A stretch of DNA of 64,000 bases from a bacterium (GTDB lineage Bacteria; Verrucomicrobiota; Kiritimatiellia; CAIKKV01; CAITUY01): contig JBAWZH010000001.1 of assembly GCA_037143135.1 (NCBI GenBank), positions 9,553 to 73,552 of the forward strand. Direction: 5' to 3'. The translations under genes were made by a program, and so were the position numbers. The notes beneath the pieces were generated by a model that was given only the letters and a program-made list of their open reading frames with translations, made no database searches and was not told the origin of the DNA. Positions 4,140-44,436 of this stretch are shown one piece after another. Position 1 is the first letter of the stretch; every line of letters starts with the position of its first letter.

Positions 4140-4174
4140 GGTGCCTTTTTGAGCAATAAGAAAGGGAATGAACG

Positions 4175-5053: not shown

Positions 5054-5071
5054 TATTAGTCAGGTCAATTC

Positions 5072-16006: not shown

Positions 16007-16480
16007 TTATTTGCGTATAAAGAATATGAGGCCCAGCAGAATGGCCATGCCAACAATGGCAACTCCGATAGATAAGAAGTTCCGTGGAGCGACACCTTCT
16101 CTCCTCATTAACAGCCGCCACCCTTGCTCGTATTCAACATATTTTCGCATCACTGGTCCCGGATCAGGGCCGAGTGATGAAACAAAGACAGTGCATGATT
16201 GAGCCATGATATCTCTTTGTCTTCTGTCTCCCGCCAGATGAGACCATGCTGAAATAAACGAGGATGCCAGCATGTATCGGTGCATTAAGGATAGCTCATC
16301 GAGAGAAAGGGACATCGAGCGCGACCAATCAGAATCAGTTGCCGTGCTTGCCCCCTCAATAAATGCTCTTAATCCATTCGTGTAGACCAAAGCTATCGCG
16401 GGCGGATGTCTATTAATTGCCTGTTCCTGTTGATCTGTGAGCTCTGCTATATGCTGAAGTGATTTTTGCTTCTCAGTCAT
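16007..16480 (-). CDS. Hypothetical protein with C-terminal TM anchor, coupled to the PLD nuclease
   Basis: Its start overlaps the PLD gene stop by 4 nt. C-terminal helix FLSIGVAIVGMAILLGLIFFI. Confidence 0.5.
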   Translation of the reverse strand: MTEKQKSLQHIAELTDQQEQAINRHPPAIALVYTNGLRAFIEGASTATDSDWSRSMSLSLDELSLMHRYMLASSFISAWSHLAGDRRQRDIMAQSCTVFVSSLGPDPGPVMRKYVEYEQGWRLLMRREGVAPRNFLSIGVAIVGMAILLGLIFFIRK

Positions 16481-17010
16481 TTTCCCTCGTAAATATCAGA
16501 ATGAGCTGCATGAGTTTTCCAGTTCTTAAGATACTTCTCTGCTAGAGTCGGATCCCTAATTACAAGGATGTTTTCAGCGTTATTACTTTCCGCCGCCTTG
16601 GTAAAGTTAAAACTCCCGGTGATCACAATATTTTCATCAATGACTATGACCTTGTTATGGGCAATGGCGTGCTGGGCATCTATCATCGTTTCGATCCCTG
16701 AGTGAGCAAAGAAGTCTGCCGAAGAATATTTCCCGGTTCGTTGGCTCTTGTCCAAAATAACGCTTACCTTAACACCCTGCTTATGGGCATTCAGGAGCGC
16801 CTTCGCGATGGTATCGGATGTGAATGAGTATGCCTGCACATGGATGGTGGTTCGTGCCTTTGCTATCTCAGCGACGATGGCTGCAGTACACCCGCCCTGC
16901 GGTGAGAAATAGACCGCCCAGGCCGGGTTTGTGCCGTTTGCCCAGACCGGGCCTGATAGTAGAGCAGCTAAGCAGACTGCAAAAAGCGATGAAAATCTAG
17001 ACCCAGTCAT
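16477..17010 (-). CDS. Secreted phospholipase-D-family endonuclease (Nuc-like)
   Basis: Signal peptide MTGSRFSSLFAVCLAALLSGPVWA. Single HKD motif HNKVIVIDENIVITGSFNFTKAAESNNAEN. The size (177 aa) is typical of Nuc. Confidence 0.8.
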   Translation of the reverse strand: MTGSRFSSLFAVCLAALLSGPVWANGTNPAWAVYFSPQGGCTAAIVAEIAKARTTIHVQAYSFTSDTIAKALLNAHKQGVKVSVILDKSQRTGKYSSADFFAHSGIETMIDAQHAIAHNKVIVIDENIVITGSFNFTKAAESNNAENILVIRDPTLAEKYLKNWKTHAAHSDIYEGK

Positions 17011-17269: not shown

Positions 17270-17500
17270 ATGCCACATGAAAAACAGATCAAGCATGATG
17301 ATGTATTGAACGCTGACGAGGCTTCCACCTGGCTTAAAATCCCTAAGTCCACCCTCTACAAGTTATGTAGCGAAGGTGAACTGCCGGCCGCAAAGGTGGG
17401 GCGTCATTGGCGATTCCACCGGGAAACGCTTGAGCAATGGTTGTTAGAGAAGACTCAGCGCCCCCAGGCCGATGACCCAGAAGCCAATTCAGAGGAATAA
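17270..17500 (+). CDS. Excisionase/MerR-superfamily HTH DNA-binding protein
   Basis: LNADEASTWLKIPKSTLYKLCSEGELPAAKVGRHWRFHRETLEQWL matches the excisionase-family HTH. ATG 17270 chosen; the ORF track uses TTG 17255. Confidence 0.7.
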   Translation: MPHEKQIKHDDVLNADEASTWLKIPKSTLYKLCSEGELPAAKVGRHWRFHRETLEQWLLEKTQRPQADDPEANSEE

Positions 17501-17501
17501 T

Positions 17502-18608
17502 ATGCCACTTCTCCAGGAAGGCTTAAATATACGAGGGACATACGAAGTGGAGAAATTCCTCGGCGAGGGCGCTTTTGCCGAGGTTTACCGCGTCCGGCAC
17601 CGGTTTCTTGGCCGACAGGCCATGAAGGTTTTCAAGCGCCTTAACATGACCGAAGAGGAAGTGCTCGATGCGCTGAATGAGGCGATTCTGCTGACGCACC
17701 TCAAACACCCCAATATTGTTAGTGTCCACGATGCAAACGTTTTTGAATTTCCCAAAGGTGTCTGCGGCTACTTCACAATGGAATTTGTGCCAGGGGGCAG
17801 TCTTGATAGGTTTTGGAGATCGCACGGCTCCACTCTTGTCCCGATTGAGACGACGGTCGACGTCATGCGTCAGGTATGCCGGGGTCTTTCCATTGCTCAT
17901 GCAGGAACCCCACCCATCATTCACCGTGACATAAAACCTCAAAATATTCTCGTGGGTTATGAGGCCGACGGGCTTCGCGCCCGAGTAAGCGATTTCGGAT
18001 TAGCCAAGAAGGTTAATCCGCTGACACTCCTTGCAACTGCTGCCGGGACGCTTCAATTCAAACCCCCGGAAACATTTCTGAAGTCGAAGGCAGATTCGTG
18101 TGCAGCTGACGTTTGGGCGCTTGGTGTGACGCTCTACCTCTTATTAACCGATCAATTTCCCTTCGAGCTTGATTCTGATTTGGGCTGGTCAAACAAGAAG
18201 GCATTTGAAAAGGAAATCACTCCTCCCAATTCATGGAACGTCGAAGTCGATCCTGCCCTTGAGAAAATTGTTTACAAATGTCTCAAGCCGAAACCAGAGG
18301 ATCGATATCCGACAGCCAAAGAATTGCTTGAAGCCTTGGAATCCTGGAAAAAGCCTTCACCCTCCAAAATCATCAAGCCGGCAAAAACAGTTTCTTCGGA
18401 AATGTCAAAAAGCATTCTTGGGGCACATTCACCTATCAATCAAGAAGAAGGTCATCGCCTAGTCAAGCAAGCCGTCAAGAAGGCTAAGGAAGAGGGGCGA
18501 TTGTTTGAGGCTGCTGATCTTATGGAAGAGGCTTTTAACAAGTCGCCATCACTTCGGCAGAAGTATGCGAACCAAGTCAAACTATGGCGTTGCGGCATCA
18601 GCATGTAA
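17502..18608 (+). CDS. Hanks-type Ser/Thr protein kinase
   Basis: LGEGAFAEVY (G-loop), QAMKVF (Lys), IIHRDIKPQNIL, VSDFGLAK and GTLQFKPPE are all present. ATG 17502 has GAGGA 5 nt upstream, directly after the HTH stop. Confidence 0.85.
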   Translation: MPLLQEGLNIRGTYEVEKFLGEGAFAEVYRVRHRFLGRQAMKVFKRLNMTEEEVLDALNEAILLTHLKHPNIVSVHDANVFEFPKGVCGYFTMEFVPGGSLDRFWRSHGSTLVPIETTVDVMRQVCRGLSIAHAGTPPIIHRDIKPQNILVGYEADGLRARVSDFGLAKKVNPLTLLATAAGTLQFKPPETFLKSKADSCAADVWALGVTLYLLLTDQFPFELDSDLGWSNKKAFEKEITPPNSWNVEVDPALEKIVYKCLKPKPEDRYPTAKELLEALESWKKPSPSKIIKPAKTVSSEMSKSILGAHSPINQEEGHRLVKQAVKKAKEEGRLFEAADLMEEAFNKSPSLRQKYANQVKLWRCGISM

Positions 18609-18612
18609 ACCA

Positions 18613-21420
18613 ATGAACACCAACGAAGATATATACGAATGTCGTTTGGCGGCAGAAGGTGGCGATGCCGAAGCCCAGTACCAGCTGGGCTTGAAGTTCG
18701 TTAACGGACAAGGTGTAGAAAAGGATGAGGCAGAAGCTGTAAGGTGGTATCGAAAAGCTGCCGAACAGGGGCATTCTACTTGTCAATATTTCCTTGGCTG
18801 GTATCTCGCCAACGGTCGGGGTGTTGAAAAGAATGAAGCGGAAGCCGTCACATGGTATCGAAAAGCTGCCACTCAGAATGTTTTAGGCGCACAATTTGAC
18901 CTTGGGGTTATGTATGCCAATGGTCGTGGCGTGACTAAGGATGCTGTTGAGGCGGCTAAATGGGCTCGCAAGGCAGCTGAACAGGGGCATGCAGAAGGTC
19001 AATATTATCTTGGGTGGTATCTCGCCCGTGGTCAGGGAGTGAATAAGGACGAAGTAGCGGCAGTCACATGGTATCGTAAGGCCGCTGAACAGGGTAATGC
19101 TGGCGCGCAGTGCGAAATGGGGATTATGTGTGCCGATGGGCGAGGTACGGGAAAAGATGCAGCAGAAGCCGCGATGTGGTTTCGCAAGGCCGCAGCTCAG
19201 GGAAACAAGAAAGCGCAGGAACTTCTATCCAATCTGCCTCAAGCAGCTCAAACAATACAAGCCCCAGCGGCTAAACCACGAGCCGCAAGTCGTGAAGCAA
19301 AAGCGGCTGCGCCAGAGTGCAAACCCCTATTGGATGCCAGTACACCCAGAGTTTACGTCCAAAACGCCTTCAGAATCACGGGACTTGCTGTTGATGCACA
19401 AACGCGAGACATCAAGCGTCGCATCGATGACCTAAAACACGCCGAAGAAAATGGGGAAGCAGAGGATGAGCATAATCATGCGTTTGCAATTGTTCCGCCC
19501 CCCTCAATTGAACATATCCGTGAAGCTGCACAGAGATTGCATGATCCGGAGCGTCGTCTAATCGAGGAGTTCTTTTGGTTTTGGCCTAGTGAATGGGGTA
19601 AAGGGAATTCAGATCCCTCATTACTTGCGATGAAGAATGGGGATAAAGACACCGCGTTTAAGAATTGGCTGGCATGTATCTCCGATGACGCCAAGAGTGG
19701 AGTCGTTTCGCGAAATGGAGGAATAGTAATCCGCGATCAGTCGGCTTTGGCAAGCCCTCGCGAAATTGCGGTTGCCAAGCATAATCTTGCAGTGATGTAT
19801 CAACTGGTTGCTCTCGACTCAGAGCATCACGTTCTGGAAAACGAATTTACTGCGGCACAACTTGAAACCATCGAGCAATATTGGCGTAAATGTTTCAAAT
19901 GGTGGGAAGAACTAACTGAGGACGAAACCTTTTGGAGCCTGATAACTGAGAGAATTCGCATGTATAACGAGCCGGAACGCCTCAAAACCGGATTTGCTCG
20001 ACAAATGCGTGCTTCTCTCCCGGAGGCGATGGACAAAATCAATGCCATGCTGGCAATTAGCTATTCTGAACGCGGGAAACTGGCGCTAGCGGAGAATCAC
20101 ATCCGTTATATGAAGGAGACGCATCAAGGTCAGGATGATATTGAGAAAACCTTAGCAATGGTGACGCAACCGCTTAAGGCTCGTGTCATAAGTTATGTGG
20201 AGAAAGCTACTGGCGTGGCGGATAGGCAACCACAGCAAGCCGCTAAATCGGCACGTGAATTGTTGCAGGCGGTTGCCGAACCAATGAAGATCATTCAGCA
20301 GATCCTGTCGCCAGAGGATCACGTGCGAATTGATCTATTCGACAGCGTCGCTGAAGCGTGCCTGACATGCCAACTTGCCTATGCGCGCGAAACGAAAGAT
20401 TGGTCAGCGAGCCTAGCAATTATCGAAGATGGCGCCAAGTACGCCGTCTCCAGTGAGACGAAAAAAAGACTTGCCGAGAATATTGCAAAAGTTACCAGAA
20501 ATAAACTTTTCGGGCAGTATATTGAACCTCTAGCAGAGTTAATTGAGAAGAGCCGAGCCAGAAGTTCAACAGCGGCGAAAGTGAGATCCGTTGAAGAGAA
20601 TCTGCTGCCCTACCTTAAGAAAATAGAGAGTGCCAAAGGCGTTAGCATTGATGTCTATAATGAGTGTGCGGATCTTGTTGCACTCTTTGTCCGGGGGGTA
20701 TCAATTTCTGCATATAATGAGGATAACGATTTGGCCGGCTCGATTAACATTTTAAATATTGCGCTAAACACAGCTCGAGGCCGAGAAGCACGTGAACAAT
20801 TGCAAAAAGATAAAGATCAGCTTAAAGGTTTTGAGGCTGAATCCACCAAACATAATCTTCGTATGCAGATTCGTGGTGACGACATTGAGATCACTCGCGA
20901 CTATGTTCGCTACAAACAGGATAAAATTCCAGTTTCTCAAATCCAAGGCGTTAAATTTGGTGTCTTTGTGCAGTACACAAACGGCGTGGAATCAAGTTCA
21001 TCGTATTTGATCGATATTACGGATGGCGGCAACATAAGAATCCACATTGAGTGCAAGCGAATATTTCGCGGTAAATCAGATGCCGAACAGGATTACAGAC
21101 GGATCCTCGACGCGATTTTTGAGCAGATCGCCACTCCGCTAGTTCAGAAGTTGGCTCAAAGCGTAGTCGCGGGGCGACCCTTGCAGATGGGGGGAGCTCG
21201 ATTAACGTCCGAAGGAGTCTATCTAACAACAGGATCTCTTTGGTGGCAAAAAGAAATAATGGTCCCGTGGTCAGACATCCGATACGGAAATCATCAAGGT
21301 TCGCTGAATCTGTCATCATCAAAGGATAAGAATATTTCTACTTCCATGGCATTACGTGACGCGTGGAATGCTGTTTTCTTTGAATATATTGCCAAAGCAG
21401 TAGTAAAGCTTAAAGGCTAA
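18613..21420 (+). CDS. Sel1-repeat protein with a degenerate J-like segment and a large C-terminal region
   Basis: About six Sel1 repeats (AEAVRWYRKAAEQGH ... AQYxLGxxYxxGxGVxKD). The J-like segment is NAFRITGLAVDAQTRDIKRRIDDLKH ... AAQRLHDPERRLIEEFFWFW, without HPD. ATG 18613 lies 4 nt after the kinase stop; the ORF-track start 18505 overlaps the kinase. Confidence 0.65.
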   Translation: MNTNEDIYECRLAAEGGDAEAQYQLGLKFVNGQGVEKDEAEAVRWYRKAAEQGHSTCQYFLGWYLANGRGVEKNEAEAVTWYRKAATQNVLGAQFDLGVMYANGRGVTKDAVEAAKWARKAAEQGHAEGQYYLGWYLARGQGVNKDEVAAVTWYRKAAEQGNAGAQCEMGIMCADGRGTGKDAAEAAMWFRKAAAQGNKKAQELLSNLPQAAQTIQAPAAKPRAASREAKAAAPECKPLLDASTPRVYVQNAFRITGLAVDAQTRDIKRRIDDLKHAEENGEAEDEHNHAFAIVPPPSIEHIREAAQRLHDPERRLIEEFFWFWPSEWGKGNSDPSLLAMKNGDKDTAFKNWLACISDDAKSGVVSRNGGIVIRDQSALASPREIAVAKHNLAVMYQLVALDSEHHVLENEFTAAQLETIEQYWRKCFKWWEELTEDETFWSLITERIRMYNEPERLKTGFARQMRASLPEAMDKINAMLAISYSERGKLALAENHIRYMKETHQGQDDIEKTLAMVTQPLKARVISYVEKATGVADRQPQQAAKSARELLQAVAEPMKIIQQILSPEDHVRIDLFDSVAEACLTCQLAYARETKDWSASLAIIEDGAKYAVSSETKKRLAENIAKVTRNKLFGQYIEPLAELIEKSRARSSTAAKVRSVEENLLPYLKKIESAKGVSIDVYNECADLVALFVRGVSISAYNEDNDLAGSINILNIALNTARGREAREQLQKDKDQLKGFEAESTKHNLRMQIRGDDIEITRDYVRYKQDKIPVSQIQGVKFGVFVQYTNGVESSSSYLIDITDGGNIRIHIECKRIFRGKSDAEQDYRRILDAIFEQIATPLVQKLAQSVVAGRPLQMGGARLTSEGVYLTTGSLWWQKEIMVPWSDIRYGNHQGSLNLSSSKDKNISTSMALRDAWNAVFFEYIAKAVVKLKG

Positions 21421-21470
21421 CCTGACAAAAACTGTCTGATTTTATGTAACACAACGAATAGGAAGCACCT

Positions 21471-22034
21471 ATGAGCAAACAGAAGCGTATGCAGGCGAGT
21501 CCGCCGAGTCGTGGTATTGTCCACATGTTTAACATGCTTAATCTCAAGCTCCCAAAGGAGCTGCGACTTCCTCCCCTCAATGACGCACCTAATTTAAACG
21601 CCCTTAAGACTCGCTTCAATGAGCTTGAAGCATTGTTGGCGCGGTCGAAGACTTCAACCCGAATCTCATCTTCTACCCCGGCTGCACCGAATCTTGATGA
21701 AAAAGCGATTGCGAACCTGGCCACTAATGCTTGGCGTGCTAAAACCAAGATGCTTGACCAGGATTCGGGTGAAGTTAAGGAAGAAATGAAGCGTGTGTAT
21801 CGGCACATTGAAGCTATCTTTGAAACGCTGAAAGGGCTGGGTGCTGAGATTCTTGACCCATGCGGTCGAAATTATGATTCCGGCATGGCGTTAAAGGTTA
21901 TCAGTTTTGAGCCGACCCCGGGAGTTTCAAAGGAAGAAATTAAGGAAACAATCAAACCATCTGTGATGTGGCAAGGACGCCTTATACAAATGGGTGAGGT
22001 AATTGTGGGTACTCCCAGCAAAGTAGATAAATGA
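21471..22034 (+). CDS. GrpE-like nucleotide-exchange-factor homologue
   Basis: The C-terminal part IEAIFETLKGLGAEILDPCGRNYDSGMALKVISFEP ... GRLIQMGEVIVG follows the GrpE four-helix/beta-domain pattern (G-x-E-x-I ... G-x-x-(F/Y)D ... V-x-V). It sits directly upstream of an Hsp70 gene with an ATGA overlap. Confidence 0.55.
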   Translation: MSKQKRMQASPPSRGIVHMFNMLNLKLPKELRLPPLNDAPNLNALKTRFNELEALLARSKTSTRISSSTPAAPNLDEKAIANLATNAWRAKTKMLDQDSGEVKEEMKRVYRHIEAIFETLKGLGAEILDPCGRNYDSGMALKVISFEPTPGVSKEEIKETIKPSVMWQGRLIQMGEVIVGTPSKVDK

Positions 22035-24529
22035 TTAATGAGGGAATGAATATGACAAGAACAACTATTGACTTCGGAATCGATCTTGGGACAACAAACA
22101 GCGCGATCGCTGTTCTAAATGGCACGCGGCCCGATGTCATTAAAAACAACGTGGATACTGATATTACTCCGTCGGCTGTGTTTATTGATAAGCGTGGATT
22201 GGTTCAAGTAGGTCAACGTGCAAAGAATCGCCAGGAGGATGAAAGCGCTGTAGACGACGTTTACATTGAGTTCAAACGCCGCATGGGTACTGACCACCGG
22301 TACGAGTTCAAAACAGCGGCGCGAACTATGCGGCCAGAAGAAGTTTCCGCCGAAGTCCTGAAAAGTTTACGTGGTGATGTTCAACAACGCCTGGGTGAGG
22401 ATGTCCAATCAGCCGTTATTACTGTGCCTGCTATATTTGAACAGAATCAATGTGCGGCAACTATTAAGGCTGGGCAACTTGCAGGGTTTGTTCAGTGTCC
22501 ACTGCTTCAAGAACCGGTTGCGGCAGCTCTTGCCTATGGTTTTCAATCTGATGTTACAAAAGAGTATTGGCTCATTTACGACTTCGGTGGCGGTACATTT
22601 GACGCTGCAATCATGAAGGCGGAAGACGGTGGTATTAGCGTGGTTAATCACGGTGGGGATAACTACCTTGGCGGCTCTGATATTGACTGGGCAATTATCG
22701 ATCAATTGATAATTCCAGACCTTAAGTCAAAGTTCAACCTGCCCGAGTTTTCGAGAAATAACAATAAATGGCGGACCGAATTTGCTCGCATTAAAAATGC
22801 AGTTGAAATTGCGAAAATTCAGCTTTCTCGCAGTGATACTGCCTTTTTGGAAGGGGGTGTGCTTAAAGATGCGGATGGGAAAAGGGTGGAACTGGATTTC
22901 AAGCTAACCAGAAATGCACTTGTTGGAGTTGCCGAGCCATTCATTATGCGCTCGGTCGAAATATGCAAAAGAGTTTTGAAGGAGAAGGGGCTATCGCCGA
23001 CTGCAATCGAGAAGGTTATTCTGGTTGGTGGGCCAACCCTTGCGCCATATTTCCGTGATATGCTGAAGTCCGGCTTAGGTATTCACCTTGATCATTCCGT
23101 AGATCCGCTGGTTGTTGTGGCGAAGGGTGCTGCTGTGTTTGCAGGAACTCAACGATTTGATACTGGTGCGGCGCCTCGACCCATTGCGGGCGAGTACAGC
23201 GTCGACCTGAAATACAAACCCGTTGGCGCTGATGAGGATCCGACTGTTCGAGGGGAAGTTACAGCAGATTCCGGCACAAGTATTGAGGGATTAACAATTG
23301 AGTTCGTCAATAATAAGAGCCTCTGGCGGAGCGGTAAAATTCCGCTAAAAACAGGAGGGAAATTTAAAGTCAACTTGTTGGCAGAGAAAGGCGGCCAAAA
23401 TGTATTCAGTATTGAGCTTGTAGACTCAAAAGGGCGCAAGCAGATTGTTAAACCGGATAATCTCTCCTACACAATCGGTATGGCGATATCTGAGCAGCCG
23501 TTTTGTAACGATGTTCGGTTAGCACTTGCAAATAACGATAGTGAGATATTCTTTAAAAAAGGTGATGCGTATCCCGCTACGCATTCATACCGGGGTTTCA
23601 AGACAACTCAAACGGTTCGCAAAGGCGAAAGTGGTGACATGCTCCGCATTCCAGTGGTTGAAGGTAATGAGGAGAAAGCAGACTGGAACCGCAAGTTGGG
23701 TGAACTAGTCATTTCCGGATCACAAATTAGACGCGACGTGCCTGCTGGCAGTGACCTTGAGGTTACTTTGCACGCAAAAGGTCCGGGAGCAATCCTCGCC
23801 AAAGCATATGTACCGTTGCTTGATGAGGAATTTGAGGCGATTATTGATTATGATAGGAAAGAACTGAATGTTAAGGATTTGCGCCGCCAATTTGAAGCCG
23901 AGTCAAAACGGCTTAAATCTTTAACTGCTAAAGCGAATGATGCAGAAGATGAGGGCGCTGGTAACTTGCTCGAAAGCGTGCCCGATATGGAAGTGATAGA
24001 CGGCCTCCTTGATACGGCAAAGGGGGATCCTGACTCGGCAAAAAAAGCGGAAAAGCGACTTATTGAATTGCGCATTCATTTGGATAAGGCCGAAGATTTA
24101 CTCAAATGGCCCGCGCTGGTGACGGAAGCCAAAACGGCGCTTGATGATTTAGATGAACTGATCGAGAAACACGGCGACGATACTCATCGCGATCAAAGTG
24201 CAAAATTCCGGGATCAGATTAAAGATCTAATTACCCAAAAACGCACTGAACCATTACGAAAGAAAGTCGCTCAAGTCTCAGATCTGCGTCTTGAAATACT
24301 TTTAGCACAACCAGGTTGGTGGGTGGGTTACCTTGAATATCTCATCGAACGACAGGGTAAGATGAATGATCAAGATAGCGCCGAGCGTCTTATCAATCAG
24401 GGAAGGCTTGCTATCAGCAAAAACAATCTTCAGGGGTTGCGTAGCGCCGTTGTCCAACTCTTAGACCTCTTGCCTAAGGAGGTTCAGGATGAAGTTCAGA
24501 GGGGATTTGGATCGGGAGTAATCAAGTAA
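22031..24529 (+). CDS. Non-canonical Hsp70 (DnaK-family) ATPase, 832 aa
   Basis: IDFGIDLGTTNSAIAVL, AVITVPAIFEQNQ, IYDFGGGTFDAAIMK and ILVGGPTLAPYFRDML are the actin-fold phosphate-1, connect, phosphate-2 and adenosine motifs. An SBD-beta-like part follows (LRIPVVEGNEEKADWNRKLGELVISG ... LEVTLHAKGPGAILAKAYV), then a long helical tail. Confidence 0.85.
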   Translation: MINEGMNMTRTTIDFGIDLGTTNSAIAVLNGTRPDVIKNNVDTDITPSAVFIDKRGLVQVGQRAKNRQEDESAVDDVYIEFKRRMGTDHRYEFKTAARTMRPEEVSAEVLKSLRGDVQQRLGEDVQSAVITVPAIFEQNQCAATIKAGQLAGFVQCPLLQEPVAAALAYGFQSDVTKEYWLIYDFGGGTFDAAIMKAEDGGISVVNHGGDNYLGGSDIDWAIIDQLIIPDLKSKFNLPEFSRNNNKWRTEFARIKNAVEIAKIQLSRSDTAFLEGGVLKDADGKRVELDFKLTRNALVGVAEPFIMRSVEICKRVLKEKGLSPTAIEKVILVGGPTLAPYFRDMLKSGLGIHLDHSVDPLVVVAKGAAVFAGTQRFDTGAAPRPIAGEYSVDLKYKPVGADEDPTVRGEVTADSGTSIEGLTIEFVNNKSLWRSGKIPLKTGGKFKVNLLAEKGGQNVFSIELVDSKGRKQIVKPDNLSYTIGMAISEQPFCNDVRLALANNDSEIFFKKGDAYPATHSYRGFKTTQTVRKGESGDMLRIPVVEGNEEKADWNRKLGELVISGSQIRRDVPAGSDLEVTLHAKGPGAILAKAYVPLLDEEFEAIIDYDRKELNVKDLRRQFEAESKRLKSLTAKANDAEDEGAGNLLESVPDMEVIDGLLDTAKGDPDSAKKAEKRLIELRIHLDKAEDLLKWPALVTEAKTALDDLDELIEKHGDDTHRDQSAKFRDQIKDLITQKRTEPLRKKVAQVSDLRLEILLAQPGWWVGYLEYLIERQGKMNDQDSAERLINQGRLAISKNNLQGLRSAVVQLLDLLPKEVQDEVQRGFGSGVIK

Positions 24530-24640
24530 GGACGGTACGTCTTACGACCATAATTAGGAGTTCTTTTTGTCAGTACCAAGGCATAAGAAACAGTGATGGA
24601 TTCCAGGGTTAGCGGTCAATGCAAGTGAACGGCGATCTTC

Positions 24641-25897
24641 ATGGCGAATGGGGAAATCAACTTCGACGAAATGCGAGCACCCGAGGTGGTTCGACCGCTT
24701 TCATTAAAGCAGGAAAAACCACCACGGGTGTCTACGCCCCCCCCGCCACTTAAGCAGCCCCCTCCGCCGCCCATTCCGCGTGCAGCCGCTCGCCCTCCAT
24801 CACCCCCGGCCGCAACACAAACTTCTCAAAAACAAAAACCAACTTCGATCGCACCAAAACCGCCAGAGACTAATAACGCATGGGTCGGCATCCTCGTTGT
24901 TGCGGGAATCATATTGTTGATCTGTTTCATGGTCGGGATTAGTTCGAGTCAGAACGGCGAAACTCCCAGGAATAATACCAGTGCGCCATCCGATCAAGTA
25001 CGCGTTCCGGAACAATCGATTATTCAACACATTCCCGAAACCGTAACAACAGTATTCCCGGAAACTCCAAAGGCGCCGATCCCGACACAAGTTGTACCTG
25101 ATATTCCGAAAACGACAGGTTCATGTCGGATTTCTGCTTTTGCAGTCGCTGGGAACGGAGAAAGACATTCTGTAACTGGAAATGCCGTTATTGCGTTCAG
25201 GCATGTTGATACAAGCGCGGCAATTTCGACGAATGTGATGATTCCGCGGATATGGCACGATATGCCAGCCGGGGAATACCACTTTGCCATTTTTATTTCT
25301 GGATTCACCCAGTCTTTTACAAATAAGATCAACATAACTGCGGATGATTACAATAATGTCGCTTTTTCATTGCAACCTCTCCCCGCTCGAGTGACCTTTG
25401 TCTGCCCATCAAATTCATTACCCTTCGCGATCTTTGATGATCACGGGTACCTGGGAAGCTCTGACAAAAGTTTTGAACTTTCGCCCTACCTCACCCATTT
25501 CTTGACGTTCAAAGCAGAAGGATGGCGTGACAAACCCATGAAGGTCAAGTTGGAGAAGCCAGGCGGGGCGTACCGATGTGCTGTTGAAATGGAACGTATC
25601 GCGTCAGGGCTTCGCATCACAGTTAGTGCAAATAAAGGGGAACCGCCGGTGGCCGGTGCTCTGATTGTGAATGGCGGGGAACCGGTAAAAGTGGCGTTCC
25701 CGTCCGAACAATCAAATTTGGCTTTCGCTGGCCCGTTGTCACTCGTTCTGGCGGTTGACGGGTATCAGGTCATTAACAACACCCAGCAAGTCACTCTCAT
25801 TGATAGAGAAATGGTTAACATTGAATTTCAGGTTGTGAAGAAATCATGGCTGTCGCGGATGCTTAACGGATCAGCTCGTAAGCAAATACAAAAGTAA
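24641..25897 (+). CDS. Pro-rich single-TM protein with PEGA/beta-sandwich-like extracytoplasmic repeats
   Basis: PPPPLKQPPPPPIPRAAARPPSPP tract, TM helix AWVGILVVAGIILLICFMVGI, then beta-rich segments with PEGA-like MPAGEYHFAIFISGF. Confidence 0.45.
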   Translation: MANGEINFDEMRAPEVVRPLSLKQEKPPRVSTPPPPLKQPPPPPIPRAAARPPSPPAATQTSQKQKPTSIAPKPPETNNAWVGILVVAGIILLICFMVGISSSQNGETPRNNTSAPSDQVRVPEQSIIQHIPETVTTVFPETPKAPIPTQVVPDIPKTTGSCRISAFAVAGNGERHSVTGNAVIAFRHVDTSAAISTNVMIPRIWHDMPAGEYHFAIFISGFTQSFTNKINITADDYNNVAFSLQPLPARVTFVCPSNSLPFAIFDDHGYLGSSDKSFELSPYLTHFLTFKAEGWRDKPMKVKLEKPGGAYRCAVEMERIASGLRITVSANKGEPPVAGALIVNGGEPVKVAFPSEQSNLAFAGPLSLVLAVDGYQVINNTQQVTLIDREMVNIEFQVVKKSWLSRMLNGSARKQIQK

Positions 25898-25945
25898 GTG
25901 CGACAATCCGCTTGTGACTGCGGTCATTGCGAGGAAGGTAAAGTA

Positions 25946-26959
25946 ATGAATAACGAAATCGAAACCGGCGAGGATAATTCAGGGTTATCCAATGATCTTG
26001 ATCTTCTTGAGGCTTCGCGCCTTATAACGGCTGGCGAAATCACTCAGGCGGAGGAAATCCTTCGGCGGATACATGCACGCATGCCCTCCTGTGAAGCATT
26101 AGACTTGATGGCGCGCATCTCAGTTTCAAAAGGGCAAATGTCCGAGGCGAGGCGCCTGTGGCAGGAGGTACTGGAAATTGATCGTTCCAATGTCTCGGCC
26201 AAATCTGCATTGGCGCGGCTCGACAGCCCATGGCTTGTTCCGGCAATTCTCGCGAGGTGTGGCTTTCTTGTCACAATTGCATTGCTGGCGAGTTTGGTGA
26301 TCGTTGGCGTTTTTGCTTTGTTCAACATTCAGCGTTTTATCGATTCAAATCATCCTGGTGGTTTTCAATCTTCAGAAACTGTAATTCATATTTCCAGTTC
26401 CGAATGCCCAACGAGAGATCAATCTCAGCCATCCACCACAGGAGATATCAAATCATCGAAAACAGTAGCGCAGGAAGACGCACCCATTCCGGTGCAACCT
26501 TTCAGCAACCCGCCTCCATTGTTTTCAATTCCTGCTTGTAGCGTCACCACGAATTTAACAGAAACCAGGATCATCTTTGAGGAGGGCATATTTGCGCGGC
26601 GATGCGAGTTAGTCAGCGATGCAAATGCGCGCCTCGATGCAGTCTCCCGAACCTTGTCTGAGCGCGGGACAGGTTGTTGGATCATAGTTGAGGGCTATAC
26701 GGATTCCGATCCGATTTCGGCTAATAGCATCTATCAGGATAATTTTGACTTGGGCATGCATCGCGGATTAGTAGTGGCTGAAGTACTGAAAATGTCGACG
26801 ACAATTCCTTCGCAAGATATTCTTGTCGGTTCAGCTGGGGATAATATCTCCCCATTGTTCCCGGGAGACGAGCCTGAGGTGAAAATGAAAAACAGAACGG
26901 TGGTCATTCATGTTATGCCGAAAGCATCAGCAACGACCACACTCGGAGAATCAAAATGA
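25946..26959 (+). CDS. TPR - TM - OmpA_C-like (peptidoglycan-binding) protein
   Basis: N-terminal TPR-like helices, TM helix FLVTIALLASLVIVGVFALF, and C-terminal IIVEGYTDSDPISANSIYQDNFDLGMHRGLVVAEVL (OmpA/MotB C-domain pattern). ATG 25946 has GAGGAAGG upstream; the ORF track uses GTG 25898. Confidence 0.65.
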   Translation: MNNEIETGEDNSGLSNDLDLLEASRLITAGEITQAEEILRRIHARMPSCEALDLMARISVSKGQMSEARRLWQEVLEIDRSNVSAKSALARLDSPWLVPAILARCGFLVTIALLASLVIVGVFALFNIQRFIDSNHPGGFQSSETVIHISSSECPTRDQSQPSTTGDIKSSKTVAQEDAPIPVQPFSNPPPLFSIPACSVTTNLTETRIIFEEGIFARRCELVSDANARLDAVSRTLSERGTGCWIIVEGYTDSDPISANSIYQDNFDLGMHRGLVVAEVLKMSTTIPSQDILVGSAGDNISPLFPGDEPEVKMKNRTVVIHVMPKASATTTLGESK

Positions 26960-28329
26960 GTTTGAACGCAGACCTTTCTATTCAACTTGTCTGGGCCATA
27001 GCGAACACTGAAGCTAATCTTTCAGGCGAGAAACGCATTCGACCAATTCACTTCTATTTAGGCATTCTCAAGTTGGTTGATCCAAGATTCCTGAAACAGT
27101 TGCATGGTGTGGATATACCGGAAGAGGAACAGCGCAGCCTCGGACAACTGTCCAAAGATGTCCGGCACTATCTTGAGATGACGGTTGATGAAATCACGAA
27201 ATTGCGCCGAGCCCTTAGAAGCGGGTTGCGAGAGGGAACGCCTGAAAAAGTCGAAATACACATGCTGCACAGATCAGATGATTCGAGAAAAGTCTTTCTG
27301 GAGGCTGGGAATAAAGTGATTCAAGCCGGGGGTAAGTCTTTGTCCGTCCTCCAGCTCGCAGAAGCTCTTTTCGAGTCTGGCGCCATCAGTCTAGATGGCC
27401 TTAAACGTCCCCATGGGCGTCCAAGTTCGAAAGGCGCGAAATGGGAGGTCGTTAATGACGGGAAGCCAGACAATCAAAAAAAGTATTCAGAATGGTTCGG
27501 GCGTAATCTGCTGAAAATGGCAATTGAGGGGACACTGCCACCTTTTGAGGGAAGAGAGCGGGAAATTAAAACCATCCTACGCGTTCTTTCCCGAACAAGA
27601 AAACGCCATATTGCCATCATCGGTGATCCTGGAGTTGGTAAAACGGCGCTAGTCGAAGGTCTGGCAAAGACTATTGCAGAGAAAAAGGTGCCTGTTGATT
27701 TGCATAATTCGGAAGTCCTTGAACTTCATGGCAGCGATATTTCAGCTGATTGTAAGAGCGAAGCAGAAATTAACCGGCGCATCTCGCATGTATTTCATGT
27801 TCTCGAGAACCATAAGCGGGCTGTACTTCTGCTCGATGATTTTCATGGTCTGTTCCCCAGCCATTTGAAGCATGATGCGACAGTTGACCTTCTTACAACT
27901 CTTCTGGCTGAGGATAATACTCCTGTGATTATTACAACCTTACCCGGGAAATGGGCGGGATTAACTGCCAGTGCGCCATCTCTTTTGAGGCATTTCGAGG
28001 TCATCAATATAACGGATCCGTCAGAAATGGAATGTAAGCGTGTTGCAGAGGCGTGGGTAAAGCGTATCGCAGAATCGCAAAGGATTAACTTCGCCCCAAA
28101 AGTGCTTGAGGCCATAATATCAGCGGCGGCTGGGTTATCGGCAGATCGGGCTTTAATTGATCGAATTGTGGATTTGATCGAGAATGCGGCAACATATGTA
28201 AAAGTGTCGGCGTTTTCATCAAATGATGCACGGCGCGACGTAACCACCGAGGTTATAGCGTCTGTCCTTACGGAGCATCACAAAGTTCGCTCAGTTAGAG
28301 CACCAAGAAGCATTGGTGAAAATCCATGA
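26956..28329 (+). CDS. Clp_N domain + single ClpA/ClpB-D1-like AAA+ module
   Basis: Clp_N-like N-terminus (IRPIHFYLGILKLVDP). FEGREREIKTILRVLSRTRKRHIAIIGDPGVGKTALVEGLA (Walker A). Walker B reads VLLLDDFH. ATGA overlap with the upstream gene. Confidence 0.75.
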   Translation: MSLNADLSIQLVWAIANTEANLSGEKRIRPIHFYLGILKLVDPRFLKQLHGVDIPEEEQRSLGQLSKDVRHYLEMTVDEITKLRRALRSGLREGTPEKVEIHMLHRSDDSRKVFLEAGNKVIQAGGKSLSVLQLAEALFESGAISLDGLKRPHGRPSSKGAKWEVVNDGKPDNQKKYSEWFGRNLLKMAIEGTLPPFEGREREIKTILRVLSRTRKRHIAIIGDPGVGKTALVEGLAKTIAEKKVPVDLHNSEVLELHGSDISADCKSEAEINRRISHVFHVLENHKRAVLLLDDFHGLFPSHLKHDATVDLLTTLLAEDNTPVIITTLPGKWAGLTASAPSLLRHFEVINITDPSEMECKRVAEAWVKRIAESQRINFAPKVLEAIISAAAGLSADRALIDRIVDLIENAATYVKVSAFSSNDARRDVTTEVIASVLTEHHKVRSVRAPRSIGENP

Positions 28330-28574: not shown

Positions 28575-28754
28575 ATGGATGACCGATGGTTCTCTGTTGA
28601 AGACATAGCTGCATATCTGGGAGTCAAAAAAGACACCATCTATAAATGGGTGCGCCTTAAGGCAATGCCAGCTCACAAGGTAGGGCGGTTGGTGAAATTC
28701 AAGGTCACAGAAGTTGACCAGTGGATTAGGTCAGGCAAGGCTAGACAACAATAA
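28575..28754 (+). CDS. Excisionase/MerR-superfamily HTH DNA-binding protein
   Basis: FSVEDIAAYLGVKKDTIYKWVRLKAMPAHKVGRLVKFKVTEVDQWI. ATG 28575 has a G-rich RBS 8 nt upstream; the ORF-track start is 28515. Confidence 0.7.
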   Translation: MDDRWFSVEDIAAYLGVKKDTIYKWVRLKAMPAHKVGRLVKFKVTEVDQWIRSGKARQQ

Positions 28755-35061: not shown

Positions 35062-36789
35062 ATGAGTAACAAACCCAAACTTGAACTGACGTGGATTGGC
35101 AAGGACAAGCAGCCACAACTTGAGCCGCGGATTCTGATTGAGGATGCGGGTAAATCATATGGCGACAGGAATGCCGGCAACATGCTTATCCACGCCGACA
35201 ATCTTCTCGCGGTCAAGGCGCTGGAACAGGATTTCGCGGGAAAGATTAAATGCGAATTCATTGATCCGCCATACAATACCGGCTCGGCATTTTCGCACTA
35301 TGATGACGGAGTGGAACATTCCATCTGGTTATCGCTAATGCGAGATCGGCTTGTGTTGCTAAGGAGGTTGCTTTCGAATGATGGATCTCTCTGGATCACC
35401 ATTGATGACACTGAGTGCCACTATCTGAAGGTGCTTTGCGATGAAGTGTTTGGCCGGCAGAATTTTGTAGCAAACTGTGTTTGGCAGAAGAAATCATCCC
35501 CACAACCGAATGCAGTTTGGCTGTCCGATAGTCACGATCACATTCTTGTCTATGCGAAGAATAAAAGCATCTGGCGCCCCGGCCGGTTAGAGCGCACGGA
35601 AGAGCACAATTCGATCTATAAACATTCAGATGAGTGGGACGGCGTAGCAAAAGATGGCAAAAGTTATGGTCGCGGCACCTGGTTTCCGGGTGACGCAACC
35701 GCTAGTCTACGAGGTGGTCAGCGTGGCGCTCAATTTGCACGCACGGGATATTCAGCGAATGCGTACGAGATTACTACGCCTTCCGGACGCAAGATATCAC
35801 CACCCTCCGGCACGTGTTGGAGATTCAGCAAGGAACGTATGGTGGAAATGATTGCTGATCACCGTATTACTTTCGGCAAAGCCGGGAATAATCGCCCCTG
35901 CGTGAAGCGGTTCCTTTCTGAACTCGAAGGGAAAGGGGTAGTGCCAATGACGGTTTGGCATTATGAAGATGTTGGTGAAAATCGTGTTGCTGCTCAAGAA
36001 GTTAAGGAATTCAACCCTATAAACCCTTTTGCAACACCCAAGCCAGAAAGATTAATTCATAGAGTCATTTCCCTCGCTTCCAATCCCGGTGATCTTGTTC
36101 TTGATTCGTTCGGTGGTTCAGGCACAACGGGCGCAGTGGCGCACAAGATGGGTCGTAGATGGATCATGGTTGAGCTAGGTGAACAATGTGAAACGCATTG
36201 TCTTCCTAGGCTTAAAATGGTTTGTGATGGCACGGATCAAGGTGGCATTTCCGAGGATGTTGAATGGAAAGGTGGCGGTGGATTCAAATATTATGAGCTA
36301 GCGCCAAGCCTTCTCTCAAAAGATAAGTACGGAAACTGGGTTATTAGCGAAGGTTACAATGCTAATATGCTTGCAGCGGCCATGGCTAAACATGAGGGAT
36401 TCAAGTATTCGCCACACCCAGAGATTTATTGGAAGCACGGCAATTCTTCGGAAAAAGATTTCATATTCACGACGACAGCTTTCGTGCAAGCCGCATTCAT
36501 TGACAGTATTCACGAGGAAATGGCAAAAGATGAACACTTGCTGATTTGCTGTAAAAAGTATTCGTCCGCATGCAAGGGGCGATATCCAAATATAGAGATC
36601 AAAAAGATTCCATCGATGCTTCTTGGCCGATGTGAATTTGGGCGGGACGATTACAGCCTCAATATTGTCAATATGCCGGAAGATCCAGATGAGTCTGATT
36701 TCGTGCCAGTCGGCCCAACAAAAGTGAAGGCAAAAACCAAAGACAATCCTGCACAGCCGGGTCTTTTTGACAATGAGGAGGTCGAATGA
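35062..36789 (+). CDS. mod: Type III restriction-modification methyltransferase (Mod)
   Basis: Motif IV FIDPPYNTG precedes motif I VLDSFGGSGTTGAVA (beta-class order). Its 3' end overlaps a Res helicase-nuclease gene. Confidence 0.85.
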   Translation: MSNKPKLELTWIGKDKQPQLEPRILIEDAGKSYGDRNAGNMLIHADNLLAVKALEQDFAGKIKCEFIDPPYNTGSAFSHYDDGVEHSIWLSLMRDRLVLLRRLLSNDGSLWITIDDTECHYLKVLCDEVFGRQNFVANCVWQKKSSPQPNAVWLSDSHDHILVYAKNKSIWRPGRLERTEEHNSIYKHSDEWDGVAKDGKSYGRGTWFPGDATASLRGGQRGAQFARTGYSANAYEITTPSGRKISPPSGTCWRFSKERMVEMIADHRITFGKAGNNRPCVKRFLSELEGKGVVPMTVWHYEDVGENRVAAQEVKEFNPINPFATPKPERLIHRVISLASNPGDLVLDSFGGSGTTGAVAHKMGRRWIMVELGEQCETHCLPRLKMVCDGTDQGGISEDVEWKGGGGFKYYELAPSLLSKDKYGNWVISEGYNANMLAAAMAKHEGFKYSPHPEIYWKHGNSSEKDFIFTTTAFVQAAFIDSIHEEMAKDEHLLICCKKYSSACKGRYPNIEIKKIPSMLLGRCEFGRDDYSLNIVNMPEDPDESDFVPVGPTKVKAKTKDNPAQPGLFDNEEVE

Positions 36790-43711: not shown

Positions 43712-44436
43712 TCGATTTCCACTGCCATCTTGACTTGTATCCAGATGCGCTGAAGCTCCTGCCAGAAGTCGTCGCCCGGAACAGATTCACCCTCGTGGTT
43801 ACGACAAGCCCCCGTGCATGGCTGGCAACTTCACGCATATTCTCCGGGTATGACAACATTAAGGTCGCTTTGGGCATGCACCCTGAGATCGTCGAAAAGA
43901 AGGCCAACGAACGCGCGCTGCTGATGTCTAGCATTTCTAGCGCCAAATTCTTGGGCGAAGTCGGTCTTGACGGGTCAGTTCAGCACACGGACACCATGCC
44001 TCTCCAGCAGTCTATTCTAAGTGAAGTGCTGACTGAATGCGAACGGGTTGGAGGAAGGATCCTCAGCATCCATTCGAAAAATGCTGCAACCCACGTTCTT
44101 AACCTCCTCGAGCGCCATTGTCACAGAAGTGTACCCGTTTTGCACTGGTTCTCGGGTACGATTCAAGAGACACGTCGTGCTGTTGCTATGGGGTGTTGGT
44201 TCAGTGTTGGGCCTGCCATGTTACGGGGCGCAACAGGCCGGGCAATACTTCAAGAGTTACCGATAGATAAAGTTCTGCCGGAGACGGACGGACCATTCGC
44301 TAAGAATCGCTCTGTTCCGCTCATGCCGTGGGACGCCATGACAATTGTGGATACAGTCGCGTCCACTTGGCAAATGCCGAAAGTTAGTGTGTGTCGACAG
44401 CTTGAACAAAACCTTCTTGCGTTATTGGCATGCTGA
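43708..44436 (+). CDS. qatD: TatD-family metal-dependent hydrolase/DNase (QatD)
   Basis: MIDFHCHLD (HxH), ALGMHPE, GEVGLD, SIHS, and LPETDGP near the C-terminus. Confidence 0.85.
   Translation: MIDFHCHLDLYPDALKLLPEVVARNRFTLVVTTSPRAWLATSRIFSGYDNIKVALGMHPEIVEKKANERALLMSSISSAKFLGEVGLDGSVQHTDTMPLQQSILSEVLTECERVGGRILSIHSKNAATHVLNLLERHCHRSVPVLHWFSGTIQETRRAVAMGCWFSVGPAMLRGATGRAILQELPIDKVLPETDGPFAKNRSVPLMPWDAMTIVDTVASTWQMPKVSVCRQLEQNLLALLAC

Follow-up and report, generated by a model that had tools for sequence, protein, structure and literature searches.

The 64,000-nucleotide stretch of DNA examined here, hereafter the window, comes from a bacterium of the Kiritimatiellia (Verrucomicrobiota; contig JBAWZH010000001.1, positions 9,553 to 73,552 of the forward strand). 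Window positions 17270-28329 carry eight genes on the + strand, g1 to g8, three of which encode a non-canonical Hsp70 (g5), a protein of GrpE fold (g4) and a large adaptor with a J-like domain (g3); the others encode a small helix-turn-helix (HTH) protein, a Ser/Thr kinase, two envelope proteins and a Clp-type AAA+ protein. We find that this machine is real, conserved and uncharacterised, and that the cassette makes a good candidate for a new switch, immune or stress-related, based on chaperones. In current annotations the Hsp70 stands as 'molecular chaperone DnaK', g3 as 'TPR repeat protein' and g4 as 'hypothetical', and PADLOC at most flags the cassette kinase as PD-T4-6.

The Hsp70, its GrpE-fold neighbour and the J-like adaptor

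The Hsp70 gene, g5 (22031..24529, + strand; probable start 22052), matches PF00012 at E = 1.5e-73. Its nucleotide-binding domain (NBD; ~22073-23146) is complete, with all phosphate-binding and catalytic motifs, and the motifs DLGTTNS, FKRxMG, QEPxAA and DFGGGTFD are kept in 59-63 of 66 homologues. The NBD is followed by a beta-rich insert of ~110 aa (~23177-23509), by the beta part of the substrate-binding domain (SBD-beta; ~23510-23935), where the family profile matches the Hsc70/DnaK SBD at E = 1.2e-4 to 7e-4, and by a C-terminal helical region of ~200 aa with a family-conserved tail, LLP…RG(Y/F)(G/Q)SG(L/V)(L/I)x. Neither the insert nor the tail gave anything usable from Pfam at E <= 1. By these motifs and domains, g5 is an Hsp70 competent as an ATPase and equipped to bind substrates. 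Its full-length homologues at 55-79% identity number more than 120. The protein scores 256 bits against a cut-off of 822 for the NCBIfam DnaK equivalog and 221 against 708 for HscA, and its identity to Escherichia coli HscC is 30% and limited to the NBD; orthology with DnaK, HscA or HscC is thus ruled out by the curated cut-offs and by the NBD-only resemblance to HscC. An earlier note, made from the letters of the window alone, had described a non-canonical Hsp70 with intact ATPase motifs, and that description held. In an actinomycete branch (L075 and L083, from Spirillospora and Actinomadura; L numbers denote the related loci described below), the Hsp70 is ~1,050 aa long with a Pro-rich C-terminal tail (…PSPPPPPDPFSTVRRSR), and the g3-like gene lies downstream of the Hsp70, not upstream, so that the order is rearranged.

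The gene immediately upstream, g4 (21471..22034, + strand), was modelled with AlphaFold2, which placed the C-terminal 110 aa at a predicted local distance difference test score (pLDDT) of ~90. When the model was compared with the PDB by Foldseek, the top 12 matches were all GrpE or GrpEL1, with probability 1.0 and E values of 4e-6 to 2.6e-3, and the first non-GrpE match came only at E = 1.0. The matching fold spans ~21588-22016, and a hidden Markov model of g4 gave a marginal GrpE match against the PDB in the equivalent region (E = 0.11). Sequence families hardly register this relationship: the window protein has no Pfam or NCBIfam match, PF01025 included, and a precomputed PF01025 match exists for 1 of 120 homologues. 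The gene adjoins Hsp70 in 53 loci. We conclude that the fold is genuine, as the earlier note's "GrpE-like" label had it, and that g4 is, on the strength of the model, the putative GrpE-fold partner of g5, with predicted nucleotide-exchange activity.

The third component, g3, begins with a head of five Sel1 repeats and no signal peptide (18613..19227, + strand; Sel1, E = 6e-46); in Pfam the repeats are confined to the first ~200 residues, and the conserved family core begins at about residue 236. An AlphaFold2 model of this core, built on a 52-sequence alignment, was confident (pLDDT 93.5; predicted template modelling score 0.70) and consists of a short helical domain (19369..19578), a long TPR-like alpha-solenoid (19756..20850; pLDDT 93.5), which gave only generic matches to TPR and designed repeats, and a C-terminal pair of beta-sheet-plus-helix modules (20857..21417), placed by the secondary structure of the model. 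The C-terminal modules occur in part of the family only, since many members stop at about profile position 510. Alignment of the short helical domain with J-domains by hhalign gave a probability of 89% and an E value of 2.2e-6 across helices I-IV, and the helices of the AlphaFold2 model agree with that alignment, compatible with a possible four-helix J fold; an invariant EFFWFWP motif follows. Pfam DnaJ was not detected, and the J-like region and the C-terminus had no usable Pfam match at E <= 1. The HPD motif is thought indispensable for J-domain function. Its site is occupied by E-N-G in the window protein and by E-L-G in the consensus sequence, and the tripeptide was found in none of the 29 homologues examined. 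The Sel1 protein with a J-like segment that the earlier note had proposed is therefore fairly called J-like, and the missing HPD bars the name J-domain protein. An HPD-less co-chaperone poses a question for chaperone mechanism.

The core of g3 defines a large family. A profile search of 1.84 billion cluster representatives (50%-identity clusters) returned 3,840, 2,408 and 1,146 representatives at E <= 1e-3, 1e-10 and 1e-30, respectively; no Pfam, NCBIfam or PADLOC model covers it, and in PADLOC g3 gave only a marginal PtuA match (E = 0.009). The heads are exchanged among homologues, which carry Sel1, Gly-zipper, Toprim_Crpt, zf-RanBP, REC or tRNA_bind domains, or none, and second g3 paralogues are present in L001, L009, L016, L019, L022 and L025. 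The second paralogue of L001 (2573-5754) has a tRNA_bind (OB-fold) head, lies upstream of the main cassette and is preceded by its own HTH_17 gene, 78% identical to g1, as if adaptors were acquired one plug-in unit at a time.

Conservation of the gene set and its accessory modules

A genome scan of 185,579 species with a profile of the Hsp70 C-terminus found relatives in 165 of them, a rare and patchy distribution, and 80 loci were kept. These are mostly from Verrucomicrobiota (Opitutaceae, Chthoniobacter), with Chthoniobacter flavus Ellin428 and Opitutaceae EW11 as cultured carriers, and other carriers belong to Planctomycetota, Lentisphaerota, Acidobacteriota, Chloroflexota, Bacteroidota (Bacteroidia), Actinomycetota, Myxococcales, syntrophic Deltaproteobacteria (Syntrophaceae/Smithella) and several candidate phyla. 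All open reading frames (ORFs) of 82 non-redundant loci (81 fetched, plus the window) were then clustered, and the window proteins were searched by tblastn. Hsp70 was present in 66 of the 82 loci, g4 in 53, the g3 core in 52, a g7-type protein with TPR and transmembrane (TM) segments in 40, and a kinase, upstream, in 30. The constant core thus comprises the g3 core, g4, Hsp70 and usually the TPR-TM anchor, which travel as a unit. The same gene order as in the window recurs in L001, L002, L004, L088, L091, L095-L097 and the P0109 contigs, and the order kinase-g3-g4-Hsp70-g7 is kept in dozens of loci from at least eight phyla with unrelated flanks.

Defence islands pack unrelated systems closely, and g6 and the form of the AAA+ gene vary between loci, so one might ask whether the string is a fortuitous row of independent genes in a crowded island. 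We regard this as extremely improbable and already contradicted, since dozens of unrelated contigs show the genes in this order and, in the window, start and stop codons overlap or are coupled. Read base by base, g1 ends in TAA at 17498-17500 and g2 opens with ATG at 17502; g2 ends in TAA at 18606-18608 and is separated by four nucleotides (ACCA) from the ATG of g3 at 18613; and ATGA overlaps join g4 to g5 at 22031 and g7 to g8 at 26956. The eight ORFs read from the sequence are nearly gapless and run in one direction, the only sizeable intergenic gaps being those ahead of g4 (50 nt) and g6 (111 nt). The frame of g7 opens with GTG at 25898, directly after the end of g6 at 25897, but ATG at 25946 is the likelier start because the Shine-Dalgarno sequence GAGGAAGG stands before it; likewise, homologues of g5 are 825 aa long, and the real start of g5 is therefore probably ATG 22052 rather than 22031. 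A promoter scan of the locus found fewer promoter-like sites than in shuffled sequences, and a terminator scan found terminator-like sites at chance level, so that no operon boundary could be called from either. The ORFs, coordinates and junctions of the earlier note were all borne out, and its eight-gene unit proved to be one conserved set, although the conserved unit is a four-gene core with added modules, and g6 is found only in the nearest relatives.

The fourth core gene, g7 (25898..26959, + strand; likely start 25946), encodes a cytoplasmic TPR segment (~26021-26221; TPR_19, E = 1.6e-5), a TM segment (~26234-26323) and a periplasmic OmpA/MotB-like domain (~26618-26896), predicted to bind peptidoglycan. 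The match to OmpA itself, PF00691, was sub-threshold at E = 7e-5 (3e-5 for the C-terminal fragment) and 23.5-24.6 bits, under the gathering score of 27.2; matches to MotB (NF006508, E = 5e-10) and ZorB3 (E = 1e-8) support the assignment, and the architecture first proposed for this gene, TPR-TM-OmpA_C, is probably right, with the last domain called OmpA-like. TPR-TM homologues follow Hsp70 in 40 loci, and in L070 the protein has TPR and LysM instead.

At the front of the cassette stands g1 (17270..17500, + strand), a small DNA-binding protein of the HTH_17 (excisionase/MerR) type (Pfam, E = 2e-16), in agreement with its initial reading as a Xis-type HTH. It is translationally coupled to the kinase gene and probably serves as an operon regulator that sets expression. 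Orthologues 64-78% identical occupy the cassette front in L001, L011 and L088-L090, and this type of HTH occurs only in the nearest relatives; g1 scores 51 against a cut-off of 80 for the NCBIfam equivalog MAD1. The kinase, g2 (17502..18608, + strand; Pkinase, E = 2e-45), has a Hanks-type domain (~17541-18332) followed by a 90-aa helical tail that gave nothing usable from Pfam at E <= 1. A Gly-loop, the VAIK Lys, HRD, DFG and an APE-like motif could all be read, as had been noted before, and the catalytic motifs are kept in 26-31 of 31 homologues (HRD 28/31, DFG 31/31); by these residues the kinase looks active. Among PADLOC models, mad6 (E = 7e-63) and PD-T4-6 (E = 3.5e-57) were the best defence-model matches, and g2 fell far below the NCBIfam MAD6 equivalog (147 against a cut-off of 460).

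The last gene, g8 (26956..28329, + strand), encodes 457 aa with an N-terminal Clp_N-like domain (26956-27450) and one Clp/Hsp100 D1-type AAA+ module (~27490-28254; ClpA, E = 1.3e-39; ClpC D1, E = 1.6e-29, residues 179-433), with no second ring. Pfam, at E <= 1 too, did not see Clp_N in the N-terminus of the window protein alone, but a profile built with stand-alone homologues matches the N-domains of Hsp104 and ClpC (E = 1.5e-5), and the L013 homologue matches PF02861 at E = 5e-8; the combination of Clp_N and a single AAA+ module thus agrees with the first description. Alignment with ClpC shows Walker A intact, Walker B reading LLLDD and a pore loop in which KSEA replaces KYRG. Because the pore-loop Tyr is missing, Walker B reads DD and there is no second ring, the term unfoldase that the earlier note had used is doubtful, and a threading function is not warranted for the window copy. 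Two-ring, KYRG-bearing Clp ATPases stand in for g8 in L004, L020 and L085. In ~20 loci the core is followed by a complete Clp ATPase, by one D1 module or by nothing more than a stand-alone Clp_N of ~180 aa. Among loci with enough flank, Clp_N occurs only alongside the kinase (8/14 versus 0/22; Fisher 1e-4, a statistic that ignores phylogeny). The N-domain of ClpC reads substrates phosphorylated on arginine, and by analogy Clp_N here could be a reader of phospho-Ser/Thr. The Clp_N-like family has invariant arginines, R84, R85, R88 and R106 in g8 numbering.

Between g5 and g7 lies g6 (24641..25897, + strand), which has a Pro-rich cytoplasmic N-terminus, one TM segment (~24878-24943) and a periplasmic domain of ~300 aa. 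It gave no match in Pfam (even at E <= 1), NCBIfam, PADLOC or the sequences of the PDB, and the PEGA-like domains once suggested for it found no support in these searches. Homologues occur only in L001 and L088-L090, and g6 is a clade-specific accessory. GYF domains bind proline-rich peptides, and the Pro-rich stretch of g6 lies at 24641-24877; a GYF_2-RDD protein is encoded 14 kb upstream, at 3168-4139 of the window, and GYF proteins stand directly before the kinase in L013 (4482-5309) and L019.

Other branches carry other front genes and additions. A regulator combining FHA with an OmpR-type winged helix precedes the kinase in L023 (844-1614), L062 and L082, and an ECF (extracytoplasmic function) sigma factor with a GYF/coiled-coil protein leads L013 (3814-5309), L019 and L022. 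A protein with an FGE-sulfatase domain lies in or beside the cassettes of L023 and L082. A small Peptidase_M50 gene (site-2-protease-like, 221-227 aa) follows Clp_N or Hsp70 in two relatives, L095 (8293-8958) and L096 (14249-14932). Together, the M50 and ECF sigma genes hint at regulated intramembrane proteolysis in some variants.

Genomic surroundings and possible functions

The cassette lies between NERD, CD-NTase (CBASS, cyclic-oligonucleotide-based antiphage signalling) and phospholipase D (PLD) genes upstream and HTH_17, SNF2, SIR2, HerA, type III restriction-modification (R-M) and QatABCD-like genes downstream. The flanks are thus as described before, with CBASS/PLD on one side and SIR2-HerA on the other, and by its gene content the whole window reads as a dense defence/mobile region. 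GC content is 46-49% in the island and 52-55% further right; the window contains no tRNA, and no tRNA or integrase was found marking an island border.

A survey of neighbourhoods, which the earlier note had suggested, gave a divided answer. In the clade of the window, represented by ten independent contexts with an Hsp70 at least 55% identical to g5, defence or mobile-element genes were found in 7-8 of the 10. They comprise a reverse transcriptase and an SNF2/PLD helicase (L002); IS21 (L004); a serine recombinase, PLD, methyltransferase, SLFN/AlbA and Cap4 (P0109); TIR, type I R-M and an integrase (L091); SIR2, DUF2130 and SNF2 (L096); and AAA_14/DUF4143 and RadC (L097), while in L088 a full eight-gene copy is bracketed by two serine recombinases, with IS110. 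The contexts of L001 and L095 were uninformative. Among distant genomes, flanks share almost no gene families between lineages. By PADLOC, neighbours of kinase-bearing loci match Drt1a (E = 3e-141), SngC (E = 1e-236), BrxH, AbiEii and DrmD, and those of kinase-less loci match DpdF, SspH and PsyrT; genes of ordinary metabolism and of the cell envelope are also among the pooled neighbours. An apparent difference between 142 matched families in the kinase-bearing group and 34 in the kinase-less group was discarded, as it reflects mostly redundant models. Defence genes are common near the cassette, which is suggestive but does not amount to a quantified enrichment.

From these data we tentatively favour the reading that the locus is a horizontally mobile conflict module, most likely anti-phage, built around a private Hsp70 cycle. 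Besides the surroundings, we take the swapping of g3 heads, the second g3 paralogues and the size of the g3 family as signs of client adaptors and of conflict. A defence role is plausible for the kinase-bearing clade of the window and less clear for the kinase-less core.

Several observations count against this reading. About 40 relatives, mostly from Opitutaceae, have no kinase, and therefore the core does not need one and its ancestral role may be non-immune. The surroundings of these kinase-less relatives are chromosomal and mixed, with sugar genes among them, so that for the distant branch the non-island setting named beforehand as unfavourable to a defence role is partly what was found. 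Neighbours of the kinase-bearing loci (ORFs of at least 200 aa) include acetyl-CoA carboxylase, DnaG and glycosyltransferases, and ~13% of neighbour ORFs match PADLOC in both groups, as counted from top-25 family lists with no background control. Neither the adaptor nor the Hsp70 C-terminus was matched in sequenced plasmids, phages or IMG/VR contigs. The window cassette encodes no classical toxic effector (nuclease, NADase or pore-former), the nearby PLD being a possible exception. The defence role is drawn from gene neighbourhood only, and any stimulation of the Hsp70 ATPase by g3 is conjectural, since its J-like domain has no HPD. Docking of the Hsp70 tail by TPR, a titration switch and phospho-reading by Clp_N are likewise inferred by analogy.

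A second explanation is that the cassette is a mobile but non-immune dedicated chaperone set for envelope or proteostasis stress, which inserts, folds or extracts envelope proteins such as g6 and g7, or raises tolerance of heat or envelope stress. Transmissible protein-quality-control and heat-resistance islands, and the targeting of Hsp70 to TPR receptors of eukaryotic membranes (Tom70, Sec72), offer parallels. We give this explanation a real, though minority, chance of being correct. Its recognisable catalytic parts are all of chaperone type (Hsp70, GrpE-fold, Clp), a TPR-TM-peptidoglycan-binding protein belongs to the core, some copies include the small M50 proteases and ECF sigma factors typical of envelope-stress signalling, and kinase-less relatives keep company with sugar and glycosyltransferase genes in their mixed chromosomal settings. 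However, small heat-shock proteins, FtsH and a two-ring ClpK/ClpG are absent from the window, g8 has no pore-loop Tyr, and the exchanged heads of g3 include the nucleic-acid-binding Toprim_Crpt and tRNA_bind. The rare, patchy distribution across phyla and the defence and mobile genes that repeatedly adjoin the cassette in the clade of the window also fit poorly with such a role.

A third explanation gives a specialised, kinase-regulated Hsp70 control over motility, exopolysaccharide, the cell surface or a social trait. Precedents are the PilZ-DnaK proteins and the DnaK paralogues of Myxococcus encoded beside GrpE-like genes (SglK/GrpS, StkA). The cassette is led by varied regulators (HTH_17, FHA with a winged helix, ECF sigma), is abundant in Verrucomicrobiota and Planctomycetota and occurs also in Myxococcales and actinomycetes, and polysaccharide genes adjoin L004-L007; in addition, there are documented cases of specialised DnaK paralogues promoting the death of stressed cells (PMC10313047). 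Nevertheless, we consider a signalling or developmental module unlikely: synteny of its flanks is not kept from one lineage to the next, copies lie between recombinases and insertion sequences, no motility or exopolysaccharide gene is consistently linked, and the window copy stands between CBASS/PLD and SIR2-HerA/R-M/Qat.

Returning to the conflict module that we favour, its working can be sketched from the domain content. The adaptor g3 would be a client-specifying co-chaperone whose variable head (Sel1 in the window) chooses the clients held by the Hsp70; the exchange of heads and the extra paralogues would mirror the diversification of Hsp70 function by J proteins, and g4 would reset the Hsp70. 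TPR receptors dock EEVD tails, and the TPR of g7 may similarly dock the conserved tail of the Hsp70, which would fix the chaperones to the inner membrane, beneath the wall. In a resting cell the chaperone cycle would keep the kinase or the adaptor silent. A flood of phage clients, phage factors that hijack the DnaK/GrpE machinery, or envelope damage would release the kinase, which would then phosphorylate host or phage proteins and arrest infection, as in defences of the Stk2/PD-T4-6 type, and the Clp_N(-AAA+) protein would read or process the marked proteins. Since the additions found in the branch of the window are all signalling parts (kinase, Clp_N, regulators, M50) and no obvious toxin is present, a chaperone-gated switch seems the most likely form for such a module. 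In its full form, with a complete private Hsp70 cycle tethered to the wall that holds the eukaryote-like kinase until phage proteins load or hijack the chaperone, and with Clp_N as reader, the proposal has a minority chance, lower than that of the conflict module itself. Such a device would be an equivalent in bacteria of titration by BiP-PERK/IRE1 or HSF1/sigma-32, with a whole Hsp70 cycle as both sensor and switch of an immune system.

A different anti-phage action would make the Hsp70, with Clp, the effector itself: the head of g3 would recruit it to dismantle structures assembled by the phage, for example lattices of capsid or scaffold, shells or replication complexes. Auxilin/GAK of eukaryotes, in which a kinase with a J-domain protein recruits Hsc70 to uncoat clathrin cages, is a model for this, and in the cassette the kinase gene lies directly beside that of the J-like adaptor. 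The adaptor is large, with a J-like domain and exchangeable binding heads, the NBD and SBD of the Hsp70 are complete, and the Clp ATPases of L004, L020 and L085 have two rings and KYRG. Even so, direct remodelling has only a slim chance of being correct, as the J-like domain has no HPD, g8 has neither the pore loop nor a second ring, many copies have the Clp_N domain only or none, and a membrane tether would not obviously be needed.

Other genes of the window may be connected with the cassette. A PLDc_2 nuclease of 177 aa (16477..17010, - strand; E = 5e-27) is divergent from g1 and has a 157-aa partner, the pair spanning 16007-17010. In L022 a PLD of 50% identity (1133-1669) precedes the cassette, and in the P0109 contigs a 207-aa PLDc_2 gene stands upstream of, and co-directional with, the cassette; this small nuclease could be an optional accessory or effector of the system. 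Downstream, a second HTH_17 gene (28575-28754) stands at the head of a block that extends to 34784 and encodes an SNF2 helicase (954 aa), SIR2 and HerA. The 954-aa ORF was considered as a second g3 paralogue, as in L001, and rejected: BLASTP gave no similarity, and it is the SNF2 helicase. Its 59%-identical orthologue lies beside the L096 Hsp70 cassette (L096 1-5521), divergent, with SIR2_2 and DUF2130. SNF2-SIR2 may be a neighbour that recurs or a system tied to the cassette in function.

Further right lies a type III R-M pair, Mod (35062-36789) and Res (36786-39467); the C-terminus of Res is a TnsA-like endonuclease. It is followed, in QatABCD order (39714-44436), by a KAP-family NTPase, a 287-aa protein of no assigned family, a QueC-like protein and a TatD DNase. 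Still further right, at higher GC, are an AAA+ protein (514 aa), DUF3150, a HerA-like protein (556 aa) and an Orc1/Cdc6-like AAA+ protein (365 aa) at 45492-47036 and 58844-61796. On the far left, a block at 1948-6768 with a PrsW-family intramembrane protease, the GYF_2-RDD membrane protein, a MotA/ExbB-like channel and two ORFs without assignment may, from its composition, be another unclassified membrane-based system.

Comparison with known systems

To our knowledge, the textbook bacterial Hsp70 systems number only three, DnaK, HscA and HscC, and the locus defines a fourth self-contained, widespread one with its own GrpE-fold factor. Like DnaK-DnaJ-GrpE, the cassette has an Hsp70 with NBD and SBD-beta, an adjacent GrpE-fold partner and a J-like co-chaperone. 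Unlike in that system, the Hsp70 is far below the equivalogs and has the 110-aa insert between NBD and SBD and the 200-aa helical C-terminus, the J-like domain is HPD-less and carried on a solenoid adaptor of 700 aa, the GrpE-like protein lies outside Pfam, and genes for a kinase, a membrane TPR protein and Clp_N accompany the set. The E. coli hscC cluster (ybeQ-ybeR-djlB-ybeT-ybeU-djlC-hscC, annotation checked) also joins a specialised Hsp70 paralogue to its own membrane-associated J-type co-chaperones and to Sel1 proteins, and the Sel1 head of g3 matches YbeQ (E = 1e-38) and YbeT (E = 5e-21). However, there is no homology beyond generic Sel1 and the NBD, and the hscC cluster lacks a kinase, Clp_N, a TPR-TM-OmpA protein and anything GrpE-like. 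An HPE/HPD-type motif is retained in DjlB and DjlC but not in g3, and a relationship of the g3 core to DjlC was rejected (hhalign probability 0.1%).

With the Hsp100 proteins of the ClpB/ClpC type the cassette shares a Clp_N domain and a D1 AAA+ module, in g8, encoded together with an Hsp70. The differences are that g8 is a single ring with no M-domain, no pore-loop Tyr and a Walker B of DD, and that many relatives retain only the Clp_N domain.

Sigma-32/DnaK, HSF1/Hsp70 and BiP/PERK-IRE1 are chaperone-titration switches, and the cassette likewise encodes an Hsp70 set with a kinase or regulator that it could hold inactive; the regulated parts have no homology to those of the cassette, and the likeness is one of analogy. 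If the association with defence islands reflects function, the cassette would represent the first defence system with a chaperone cycle at its centre. Infection would then be sensed through proteostatic or assembly load, without recognition of a specific viral molecule, and bacterial immunity would be linked to the eukaryotic logic of the unfolded-protein and heat-shock responses.

Among defence systems, MADS resembles the front of the cassette in having MAD1 (HTH) directly before MAD6 (kinase), as g1 precedes g2. The similarity to MAD1 and MAD6 is sub-threshold, though, and the cassette has no methyltransferase or other MADS gene. Genes near the kinase-less Hsp70 triads include PADLOC matches to mad2 (three times), mad3 and mad8 (twice), a possible tie to MADS-type islands in view of the MAD1- and MAD6-like g1 and g2. 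Two further kinase defences, PD-T4-6 and Stk2, consist of one gene each. With PADLOC v2 models, the cassette gave no match for g4, g5 or g6 and, for g3, only the marginal one to PtuA; the defence models met were those for the kinase (mad6/PD-T4-6) and the HTH (mad1), plus generic P-loop and MotB matches.

Precedents exist for Hsp70-type proteins in predicted immune systems (PMC7159879, PMC11090510, PMC12642450). In GTPase-centric conflict systems, Hsp70, GrpE and a DnaJ- or TPR-fused partner have been proposed to form an NTP-driven threshold, a separate theme includes a kinase, and Sel1, PEGA and OmpA serve as envelope-facing domains (Kaur, Burroughs, Iyer & Aravind 2020, PMC7159879). Those GAP1-N2/DO-GTPase systems need a TRAFAC GTPase, with or without tubulin, and have an FNIII-repeat partner, mainly in actinobacteria and firmicutes (PMC7159879), unlike the cassette, in whose eight proteins no GTPase or tubulin domain was detected. 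In type III CoCoNuT systems, CnuD combines Hsp70-like NBD/SBD with helical repeats in predicted defence operons, some with Ser/Thr kinase extensions; these are McrBC derivatives with HEPN RNases, and CnuD has degenerate Walker motifs and predicted RNA binding (PMC11090510), whereas the cassette has intact ATPase motifs and no McrB-like NxD GTPase, McrC, CnuC or HEPN. DnaK-like domains fused to EACC1-protease have been proposed as the sensor of an antiviral or stress death module; they lack the lid, are ~50% identical to DnaK and work with a protease-activated pore effector (PMC12642450), in contrast to the stand-alone divergent Hsp70 of the cassette with its own co-chaperones and kinase. The literature searched yielded these related ideas and no description of this gene set, which, together with the PADLOC results, agrees with the earlier view that no described system has this composition. 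The cassette is thus kin both to the specialised Hsp70 systems and to the chaperone-NTPase conflict systems, and is a member of none.

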